Assembly: GCA_024408095.1 (NCBI GenBank)
Contig: JAKSVI010000005.1
Coordinates: 1-63,895 of the forward strand
Length of the DNA: 63,895 nt
DNA from: Bacilli bacterium
Lineage (GTDB): Bacteria > Bacillota_I > Bacilli_A > RFN20 > CAG-826
Direction: 5' to 3'
Part shown: in pieces, positions 12,370-12,754 of the stretch
How the letters are laid out: each line of letters begins with the position of its first letter
How positions within the stretch are numbered: the first letter of the stretch is position 1
Translations under genes and position numbers: made by a program
The notes under the pieces: generated by a model
What the model saw: only the letters and a program-made list of their open reading frames with translations
What the model was told of the DNA's origin: nothing
The model's database searches: none

Positions 12370-12395
12370 TTGCCACTTCAGCCTTGAAAGGACGA

Positions 12396-12424
12396 TTGAC
12401 TCATCCCGATACTGTTTGTATAAT
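12396..12424 (+). promoter_or_regulatory. sigma70 promoter of putative antitoxin sRNA 1
   Basis: TTGACT-N17-TATAAT. Confidence 0.85.
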
Positions 12425-12430
12425 AATATT

Positions 12431-12474
12431 GTGTGTTTGGAGAGGCGCTAACCATGGCGCACCTCTCTTTTTTT
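12431..12474 (+). ncRNA. putative type I antitoxin sRNA copy 1 (~45 nt)
   Basis: Consensus promoter followed by GAGAGGCGC-taaccatg-GCGCACCTCTC hairpin and T7; convergent with the peptide ORF; ends approximate. Confidence 0.6.
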
Positions 12475-12503
12475 AAGGCCTTTAGACAATCGAGATGTCT
12501 AAA

Positions 12504-12623
12504 CTAATTTAGTTTTTCAAAACCACAATTAGGATCGTTAACGAGAGAATTGCTAAGACAACTTCTAGCATAACGCTCCTTCTTATACAAACAGATGAGG
12601 AATCGTCCCTTACAAGAAGGCAT
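12504..12623 (-). CDS. putative 39-aa leader ORF overlapping the toxin (mok-like), copy 1
   Basis: GGGAGG RBS, ATG at 12623; MPSCKGRFLICLYKKERYARSCLSNSLVNDPNCGFEKLN*. Confidence 0.35.
   Translation of the reverse strand: MPSCKGRFLICLYKKERYARSCLSNSLVNDPNCGFEKLN
12509..12571 (-). CDS. putative type I toxin, 20-aa hydrophobic peptide, copy 1
   Basis: AAGGAG-cgtt-ATG; MLEVVLAILSLTILIVVLKN*; one TM-length helix with a basic C-terminus. Confidence 0.65.
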   Translation of the reverse strand: MLEVVLAILSLTILIVVLKN

Positions 12624-12754
12624 ATTTTCTAAGCCTCCCATATATATAGTTCGACAAAAAATCGAATTTTTATTAAAATTACTTGAAAATTTTTAAAAAA
12701 AGCTTTGTTTTGCTGAAAATTTTGTATTTTTTTGAGCAATCAATGAGAGGACGA

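Follow-up and report, generated by a model that had tools for sequence, protein, structure and literature searches.

A putative type I toxin-antitoxin module in which the complement of the antitoxin promoter is predicted to pair with the toxin leader

The stretch of DNA analysed here, which we call the window, comprises 63,895 nucleotides (nt) of a contig from a Bacilli bacterium (JAKSVI010000005.1, positions 1 to 63,895, assembly GCA_024408095.1), and it carries an array of three tandem units between a ROK-type glucokinase gene (glk, 11401-12369, plus strand) and an S-adenosylmethionine (SAM) riboswitch with metK. In the first and third units an open reading frame (ORF) for a putative toxin, a peptide of 20 amino acids, lies on the minus strand and converges with the gene of a predicted antitoxin small RNA (sRNA) on the plus strand, which consists of a promoter, a 5' tail, a G+C-rich hairpin and a T7 run; the second unit retains the sRNA gene only. 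Judged from the sequence, this is the layout of a type I toxin-antitoxin system in which the antisense RNA overlaps the 3' end of the toxin transcript, and the putative toxin family and its module are hitherto undescribed, their genes being unannotated. Our analysis suggests that the toxin transcript runs through the hairpin shared by the two genes and that the complement of the sRNA promoter, once transcribed, can fold back onto the leader of the toxin RNA.

The promoter of the first sRNA gene matches the consensus at 11 of 12 positions, and the sRNA promoter is retained in all four copies of the module in this genome and in every relative that we found. We placed the start site of sRNA-1 from its -10 element; across units 1 and 3 the 5' tail is 12-16 nt long. 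The gene of sRNA-1 scores 117 bits under R1, a covariance model of the sRNA gene and its promoter. The three window sRNAs differ from one another in their 5' tails only. An Rfam scan of positions 11000-15000 returned the SAM riboswitch as its sole significant match and no family for the module, and four loci from a related genus, g35, likewise had zero Rfam matches, so that a known RNA family was ruled out. The peptides of the window, of a paralogue in the same genome and of g35 match no Pfam or NCBIfam family.

The fold-back rests on a repeat to which a first-pass annotation of this DNA had drawn attention, namely that the sRNA promoter block is a gapped copy of the toxin leader. The coordinates bear this out: GGACGATTGACTCATCCCGATACTGTTTGTATAA (plus strand, 12390-12423) matches GGACGATTCCTCATCTGTTTGTATAA (minus strand, 12610-12585), the core of the repeat being an inverted repeat of 15 nt at 93% identity (I10, 12412-12426 with 12580-12594), and the leader copy stops 3 nt short of AAGGAG, the Shine-Dalgarno sequence (SD), just 5' of which the fold-back had been said to end. 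When a hypothetical read-through toxin RNA, continued to 12385, is folded with RNAfold, the leader pairs with the promoter complement in three helices of 11, 7 and 10 bp, together called H1. The earlier estimate of about 11, 6 and 8 bp was right in the number of helices and in the length of the first and short for the other two, and it did not list a second, nested helix, H2, which is predicted between the 3' end of the ORF (12519-12531) and the complement of the sRNA tail (12427-12439). In unit 3, H2 is a perfect helix of 9 bp (GUGGUUUUG with CAAAACCAC), and both H1 and H2 are present in the minimum-energy fold at all three loci. The duplex between leader and tail has an energy of -38.0 kcal/mol, against -18.5 +/- 3.5 kcal/mol for 1000 dinucleotide shuffles (z-score, z, of -5.5; -7.8 for the paralogue), and among 12000 random 60-nt windows of the genome only 8 pair equally well in the case of the window and 3 in that of the paralogue. 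The promoter-proper arm of 30 nt, taken alone, gives z of -3.3 to -3.9 in window and paralogue.

Table 1. Predicted features of the array and of its surroundings, in window coordinates.
Feature	Position	Strand	Details
Unit 1, complete module	12381-12650	both
sRNA-1 promoter block	12390-12423 (-10 extends to 12424)	+	GGACGATTGACTCATCCCGATACTGTTTGTATAA; TTGACT 12396-12401, 17-nt spacer, TATAAT 12419-12424
Predicted antitoxin sRNA-1, ~47 nt	12428-12474	+	5' tail 12428-12439; hairpin GAGAGGCGC/GCGcaCCTCTC 12440-12467; T7 12468-12474
Toxin ORF 1, MLEVVLAILSLTILIVVLKN, 20 amino acids + stop	12571..12509	-	hydrophobic codons; last codons 12519-12531 are the 5' arm of H2
Shine-Dalgarno AAGGAG of toxin 1	12581-12576	-	4 nt 5' of AUG
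5' arm of H1 in toxin leader	12611-12583	-	AAGGGACGAUU 12611-12601; unpaired C 12600; CUCAUCU 12599-12593; GUUUGUAUAA 12592-12583
3' arm of H1 (promoter complement)		-	AAUCGUCCUUU 12387-12397; GGAUGAG 12400-12406; UUAUACAAAC 12414-12423; 7-nt bulge 12407-12413
3' arm of H2 (complement of sRNA 5' tail)	12427-12439	-	immediately 3' of the hairpin in read-through toxin RNA; inverted repeat I22
Local anti-SD CCUUCUUGUA	12611-12620	-	pairs UAUAAGAAGG (12587-12578) once the 3' arm is absent
Hairpin in 3' untranslated region (3'UTR), UUUAGACA-ucucgau-UGUCUAAA	12481-12503	-	between toxin stop codon and shared hairpin
Unit 2, orphan sRNA gene	12744-12884	+	promoter 12755-12783, hairpin, T-run; toxin segment deleted
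Unit 3, second complete module	12927-13194		98% identical to unit 1; promoter 12939-12967 (+); sRNA ~12971-13018 (+)
Unit 3 toxin ORF, MLEVVLAILSLTILIVVLKN	13115..13053	-	leader arm 13127-13155 (-)
SAM riboswitch RF00162	13323-13427	+	47.4 bits, gathering score of 44.4 barely exceeded; terminator 13445-13468
metK	from 13475 onward	+	downstream of SAM riboswitch

Does the toxin transcript reach the promoter complement? The shared hairpin is followed by a T-run on the plus strand only (12468-12474); on the toxin strand an A-run lies 5' of the hairpin, and the sequence 3' of it reads CAAACACAC (CAAACACACAAU) in unit 1, GAAAACCAC in unit 2 and CAAAACCAC in unit 3. A U-run after the hairpin on the toxin strand is found in none of 17 modules. 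Between 12200 and 13600 terminator-like sites occur on the plus strand and none on the minus strand, where no such site is seen from 12440 down to 9858, a distance of about 2.5 kb. Nor was the RNA-binding domain of Rho (PF07497) found in any of the eight carrier genomes, in a search in which the positive controls matched; this genome is 83% complete, and among the seven other carriers three are at least 92% complete. Since there is neither a U-run on the toxin strand, nor a minus-strand terminator for 2.5 kb, nor a Rho domain, read-through of the hairpin by the toxin transcript is plausible, and the first-pass annotation, which had expected it from the missing minus-strand T-run, is supported in silico on this point.

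If the pairing matters to the cell, related modules should help in judging it. A search with nhmmer finds four copies in the assembly, namely the three units and a paralogue on another contig (C26), 71% identical, whose toxin is MMIDFAIAIVALLLLVIVVKR and whose promoter hexamers, spacing and one-way hairpin are as in the window. In the paralogue, too, leader and promoter block are gapped copies of one another, GGTTGACTTGT-(7 nt)-CTATTTGTATAA, and the 7-nt gap falls at nearly the same position of the spacer in window and paralogue (a shift of one nucleotide). For this copy we predict an H1 of 7+11+12 bp and an H2 of 5+6 bp. The duplex energies are -38 and -36 kcal/mol for window leaders with window arms and -36 kcal/mol within the paralogue, and about -22 kcal/mol for the crosses. 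Between window and paralogue four double changes preserve the pair: one in the H1c part of H1 (G:C to A:U), two in the promoter spacer (A:U to G:C, and C:G to U:A) and one immediately before the -35 element (A:U to G:C). A further pair, for which the leader has AAGGG and the promoter AAAGG, is a G·U pair on the toxin strand alone. Any protein reading both arms would need an equal sequence at both loci of one cell; pairing in cis would not.

Beyond this genome, matches to R1 of 29-39 bits are concentrated in g35, which belongs to the same family. BLAST within g35 yields nine full-length modules, all of them adjoining rpsF, and four more divergent ones, which makes 13, with a tandem pair in one genome. 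Their toxins are of the window type (e.g. MQELILVLLLVLLILVALKK, MQELILVLLLVLLILVALKKSSKK, MQEIILVLLLLLLVLVAFKRLLKNK, MQDLFLVLVVILLLLVFVKRR, MQELAVILVVVLLLLVVVKRK): the homologous peptides have 21-25 amino acids, an NTN codon periodicity and a basic C-terminus, and in the g35 alignment T is invariant in every third column, the signature of NTN codons. All 13 modules have a promoter of the form TTGAC(T/A), 16-17 nt, TA..AT, convergent to the toxin, and in all of them the U-run of the hairpin is on the sRNA strand only. A frame of 37 amino acids ('MRH...') was considered as the g35 toxin and rejected, its leader giving z of about 0 against the tail; the toxin lies in another frame, whose leader does pair. 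A BLAST search with the unit in 201 genomes of the same family gave no homologue; the genus of the window consists of this genome alone and offers no congeneric homologue; motif patterns searched in genome, viral and metagenome contigs matched only chance terminators or coding DNA; an nhmmer scan downstream of the glucokinase gene in 24 genomes, based on synteny, gave no homologue; and the weak model matches in other genera (L077-L091, L125-L135) have no toxin-like ORF, with the exception of L126, to which we return.

Single-sequence folds of all 13 g35 modules predict two long-range contacts. The complement of the -35 element, the spacer and a short upstream segment is paired to the leader immediately before the AUG, and the complement of the -10 element and of the sRNA tail to the central part of the ORF. 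We defined a fixed structure as the column pairs found in at least five g35 sequences and counted it on the alignment. In this structure 80.3% of the cells are paired, against 33-43% when the 3' partners are slid by 1-3 columns, and the covariation score is 0.158, against at most 0.089 in the slid controls. Double-change cells number 13, compared with 7.0 +/- 1.9 in shuffles, and none of 500 shuffles reaches 13. Several pairs occur with three pair types, and six pairs that vary on one side are kept as G·U; G·U cells number 36 and A/C cells 11. The duplex on the toxin strand is more stable than that on the opposite strand in 12 of 16 modules, with a mean difference of 2.75 kcal/mol. The matrix of duplex energies is block-specific: g35 leaders with window or paralogue arms reach -9 to -20 kcal/mol and window or paralogue leaders with g35 arms -11 to -18 kcal/mol, while pairs within a lineage come to about -27 to -36 kcal/mol. 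(The corresponding matrix for H2 was too noisy across modules and was not used.) In the frame of the g35 leader, moreover, a synonymous TTA/TTG change tracks an A/C change in the promoter spacer. Since compensatory changes preserve the pairing in both the paralogue and the 13 g35 modules, we propose that one stretch of DNA is under constraint both as a promoter and as an RNA pairing arm, which gives support in silico to the first-pass suggestion of such a double use. We consider it rather likely that the pairing between leader and promoter complement is real and selected. The structural half of our proposal, that is read-through and pairing with the DNA used twice, is thus supported, within the model, by statistics and by covariation in about eight lineages.

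Could such a repeat arise and persist with no function at the level of RNA? The sRNA gene might be a truncated inverted copy of the toxin gene, a relic of an inverted duplication that is kept by gene conversion or by a constraint on the DNA. The whole module is indeed a nested imperfect palindrome around the hairpin, as an inverted duplication would give, and inverted repeats fold on either strand, the opposite-strand duplex being weaker by the small average difference given above. Several features of the covariation nevertheless speak against a relic. The arms differ between loci and match within a locus at positions that carry no promoter constraint; the runs of identity, of 12 nt at most, and the retained 7-nt gap argue against gene conversion; changes on one side stay paired as G·U on the toxin strand; and the synonymous change in g35 follows its partner in the spacer. 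On balance we regard an origin and maintenance of this kind as quite unlikely. A mobile element with terminal inverted repeats was ruled out, the toxin promoter lying outside the repeats.

A different concern is that the toxin RNA may be cut, or may end, at the hairpin too fast for the 3' arm to meet the leader, in which case the leader copy would be a sigma-dependent pause site, a decoy for RNA polymerase or a shared operator. It is true that the leader copy retains hexamers resembling the -35 and -10 elements, TTGACT..TATAAG in the paralogue and TTGAC in most g35 leaders. These hexamers, however, are 10 nt apart, which is not the spacing of a promoter and led us to rule out the leader copy as one. 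Furthermore, a trans-acting protein would demand an equal sequence at both loci, whereas window and paralogue each match only themselves, and a factor that reads hexamers would not require the covariation that we see at spacer positions. We therefore hold such explanations of the leader copy to be very unlikely. One may also ask whether the functional hairpin belongs to the plus strand, in a read-through RNA that comes from the upstream glucokinase gene or from the sRNA and crosses the toxin gene in antisense. Between glk, which ends at 12369, and the sRNA promoter there is no terminator, so that transcription of glk probably stops at the terminator of the sRNA and its mRNA includes the promoter block. 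Yet a strong hairpin with its T7 terminator precedes the toxin leader on this strand, and the usage of G·U pairs favours the toxin strand, so that a plus-strand function seems to us barely credible.

We now turn to what fold-back of the toxin strand would do to translation. For transcripts ended at the hairpin and for full-length ones we computed the energy needed to open the region from -14 to +6 of the toxin start. The full-length form costs more to open in 15 of 16 modules, by 5.3 kcal/mol on average. The toxin start region lies under the fold-back in the paralogue and in 11 of the 13 g35 modules, where opening it costs 3.6 to 9.9 kcal/mol more, and in most g35 modules the weak SD or the AUG forms part of the helix with the promoter complement. 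Deprived of the 3' arm, the window leader folds a local anti-SD hairpin of 10 bp (12611-12620 with 12578-12587), which hides the SD at least as well as the fold-back does. Because this hairpin already covers the SD, the rise in the window is small, and because it replaces the fold-back, 3' truncation is not predicted to activate the window copies. The earlier claim that truncation activates the toxin thus carries over, as a prediction, to the paralogue and to most relatives and not to the copies for which it was made. A translation lock relieved by 3' processing is accordingly plausible for the toxin family, judging from these energies, and weak at the window locus.

Several results weigh against the proposed fold-back and its action, and we gather them here. 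As to the pairing, RNAalifold on the g35 alignment returns local hairpins only; the energy of the g35 helix comes largely from palindromic GGGCA..UGCCC segments, which are able to fold locally instead; the promoter-proper arm alone gives z of only -0.3 to -3.1 in g35; the structure that we counted was derived from the same sequences and is favoured by this; and independent lineages are few (window, paralogue and about six g35 subgroups). As to the transcript, the minus strand has no match to a consensus promoter, so that the start of toxin transcription is guessed, and one would hardly expect a long RNA antisense to the convergent glucokinase gene. As to the effect on translation, the start-region energy of the window copies rises by only 0.8 and 2.7 kcal/mol, the narrower stretch from SD to AUG costs 10.5-12.4 kcal/mol for every 3' end, and H1 in the window stops 2 nt before the SD and leaves it uncovered.

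It may therefore be asked whether the fold-back forms and yet serves some purpose other than a block of translation, for instance protection of both RNA ends from exonucleases, in an organism that has no Rho and whose transcripts have no terminator, a site for RNase III in cis or a gate for access of the sRNA, with local stems at the SD alone holding translation in check. In the window the opening energy of SD and AUG is equal with and without the 3' arm, and the local anti-SD hairpin is at hand; H2 hides the complement of the sRNA tail; RNase III is present in this genome, and the carrier genomes searched gave no Rho domain; and at L126 the sRNA tail mimics the leader and the helix between the 5' and 3' regions is placed before the hairpin, an arrangement shared with bsrG/SR4. 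On the other hand, most g35 modules and the paralogue have the start region covered at the energies just given, and in some g35 modules the AUG or SD itself is paired. We judge a purpose of this other kind to be unlikely.

The mechanism that we favour, in which fold-back closes the toxin transcript, would work as follows. A membrane-type peptide of 20 amino acids would be made from the minus strand and a convergent antisense RNA of about 47 nt from the plus strand, and the shared G+C-rich hairpin would stop transcription in the sRNA direction only. Because the hairpin is one-way, the toxin transcript would continue through the sRNA gene and its promoter. The resulting 3' extension would fold back, the promoter complement pairing with the leader just 5' of the ribosome-binding site (H1) and the tail complement with the 3' part of the ORF (H2), so that the two helices would close the primary transcript compactly. 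Closure would place the start region at a junction of helices and hide the single-stranded stretch that the sRNA tail targets. Its full complementarity to the hairpin and to the H2 3' arm would allow the sRNA to open H2 and to yield a duplex of about 47 bp, a possible substrate of RNase III; the sRNA could not displace H1 directly, because the promoter lies outside its own transcript. The same 35 bp of DNA would have two uses, as promoter when read on the plus strand and as RNA pairing arm when read on the minus strand. The sequences show the architecture, its conservation and the covariation; what we infer is a long transcript that is actually made, a fold that it adopts in the cell, and a resulting drop in translation or gain in stability. 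For the mechanism as a whole we would put the chances at about even.

Two aspects are new, the 3' arm as the antisense of the antitoxin promoter and the undescribed toxin family. Should the long transcript exist, the module would be a clear example of DNA in double use, a promoter when read on one strand and a conserved RNA pairing arm when read on the other, with promoter-spacer bases that are normally free now tied to the toxin leader. It would also extend 5'-3' closure of the hok and bsrG kind to a convergent sRNA with a one-way shared hairpin, and to an undescribed toxin family in uncultured small-genome bacteria that apparently lack Rho. The system is compact, and compensatory mutations can be designed that leave the -35 and -10 hexamers untouched; about 20 unannotated putative toxin genes, with their sRNAs, are flagged by our analysis. 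One may speculate further that in a reduced-genome lineage without Rho non-termination is itself the design: each round of toxin transcription would pass over the sRNA promoter, which it may occlude, and copy its complement as a self-inhibitory 3' domain, the spacer would be under an RNA constraint from the opposite strand, and the module could be a two-state switch set by whichever convergent promoter fires. This last idea we put forward as doubtful, though worth stating.

How does the module compare with known type I systems, in whose toxin mRNAs 5'-3' interactions are a recognised feature and serve as descriptors (PMC8594479)? In hok mRNA of plasmid R1 the 3' end pairs with the 5' region (fbi-tac), and the closed primary transcript is poorly translated and its antisense target hidden (PMC3834814). 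The module resembles hok/Sok in its predicted 3'-5' closure and in an ORF in another frame that overlaps the toxin ORF. It differs in the place of the antisense gene, which for Sok is the 5' end of hok, while the sRNA in the window converges on the toxin gene and overlaps it at the 3' end, and in that the 3' arm here is the complement of the antitoxin promoter and needs read-through of the shared hairpin. The toxins, moreover, are unrelated, with no match to Pfam Hok/Gef here, and activation by 3' trimming is not predicted for the window copies.

The bsrG mRNA of Bacillus subtilis is closer in some ways. Its nucleotides 1-35 pair with 232-262 in a long helix, P1, which is split into sub-helices; when the antitoxin SR4 binds, P1 is lost, the 5' region is reshaped and the stem at the SD grows from 4 to 8 bp (PMC3834814). 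Here too we have a system of the Gram-positive type with a convergent antitoxin at the 3' end, and the window leader is likewise predicted to switch between a long-range helix and a longer local stem at the SD. The 3' arm of P1, however, lies upstream of the bsrG terminator and inside the overlap with SR4, whereas the 3' arm of H1 lies beyond the hairpin, in the promoter of the sRNA, which the sRNA itself does not transcribe. Because of this position the sRNA can compete for H2 only. It is also much shorter than SR4, about 47 nt against 180 nt.

Several traits of our module find a likeness in the par locus of pAD1 (PMC7472228): in both, the two promoters converge, the sRNA is small (about 40 nt in par), the stem-loops of the terminators are complementary, a block of sequence recurs close to each promoter, and the SD is masked by a stem in the 5' region. 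Unlike the bidirectional terminator of par (Fst/RNA I-RNA II), however, the hairpin here has its U-run on the sRNA strand only in all modules, and while the par repeats are direct, lie within RNA II and pair two RNAs, those of the window are inverted, lie in the sRNA promoter and pair within one RNA. Pairing of the par kind between the two RNAs was ruled out, the repeats being inverted and not direct; the sRNA tail and the end of the toxin ORF agree in sense (inverted repeat I22). Finally, no peptide here contains proline or PXXXG, the Fst motif (PMC7472228), and there is no match to Pfam Fst_toxin. The module would work like hok, bsrG and par and yet does not pass the defining tests of these families: it has no Fst or Hok signature, its terminator is one-way, its repeats are inverted and lie in the promoter, and its sRNA is at the 3' end.

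In the aapA1/IsoA1 system of Helicobacter pylori the primary toxin transcript stays inactive through a long-distance 5'-3' interaction. The overlap of IsoA1 is with the 5' region of aapA1, and the aapA1 mRNA has its own terminator, both of which are unlike the module in the window. To our knowledge no promoter sequence is involved in the aapA1 interaction, again unlike the window module. A related case is L126 (G403:C3, ~43976-44300), from another family of the same order, where a similar toxin, MEVILVLFLFILFLKEYRKLK, has a convergent sRNA. There a leader/3'UTR helix of about 25 bp lies upstream of the hairpin. The 3' arm of this helix directly repeats the sequence complementary to the sRNA tail (GUCAAAGUAGUUC); the tail mimics the leader, and the sRNA can therefore compete with it. 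L126 is in this respect closer to the direct repeats of par (PMC7472228) and to bsrG/SR4. As far as predicted folds go, L126 shows that closure of the 5' and 3' ends is a common theme in which the position of the 3' arm varies.

A few observations concern the host and the surroundings of the toxin genes. The host is an uncultured lineage with a small genome, for whose MetK the best named matches are Thomasclavelia at 60% and Acholeplasma at 52%. In unit 2 the promoter, sRNA and terminator are intact, and the toxin has been cleanly deleted between CTTTAGACAATCG and the spacer. A promoter-like TCGACA-17-TAAAAT (10 of 12 consensus matches) occurs on the plus strand at 12651-12679 and 13195-13223, pointing away from the toxin genes into A+T-rich spacer, and may be due to chance. 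An ORF in the -1 frame, with its own SD in the 5' hairpin (GGGAGG..AUG), spans the whole toxin ORF on the minus strand (12641/12623..12504 and 13185-13048); the overlapping frame of 45 amino acids has no match in the protein database. In g35 (L095-L111) the overlapping frame reads AAAGGAG..AUGAGACAU ('MRH..') while the toxin itself has a weak SD or none, an arrangement that recalls the coupling of mok and hok. Since NTN codons put T in the third position, however, the overlapping frame is open automatically, and its openness alone is no evidence. Three of the g35 loci, L099 (G264), L100 (G121) and L111 (G243), illustrate decay of the module and variation in copy number, with one toxin frameshifted (MQELILVLLLCY), one that has no stop codon and is extended to 37 amino acids, and one genome with at least two tandem modules. 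Lastly, the hairpin with T-run that precedes the g35 toxin (AAAACCCCTCC..GGAGGGGCTTTTTT) is present in dozens of copies per genome, at 75-90% identity, and looks like a family of dispersed terminators or of repeats resembling repetitive extragenic palindromic (REP) elements.

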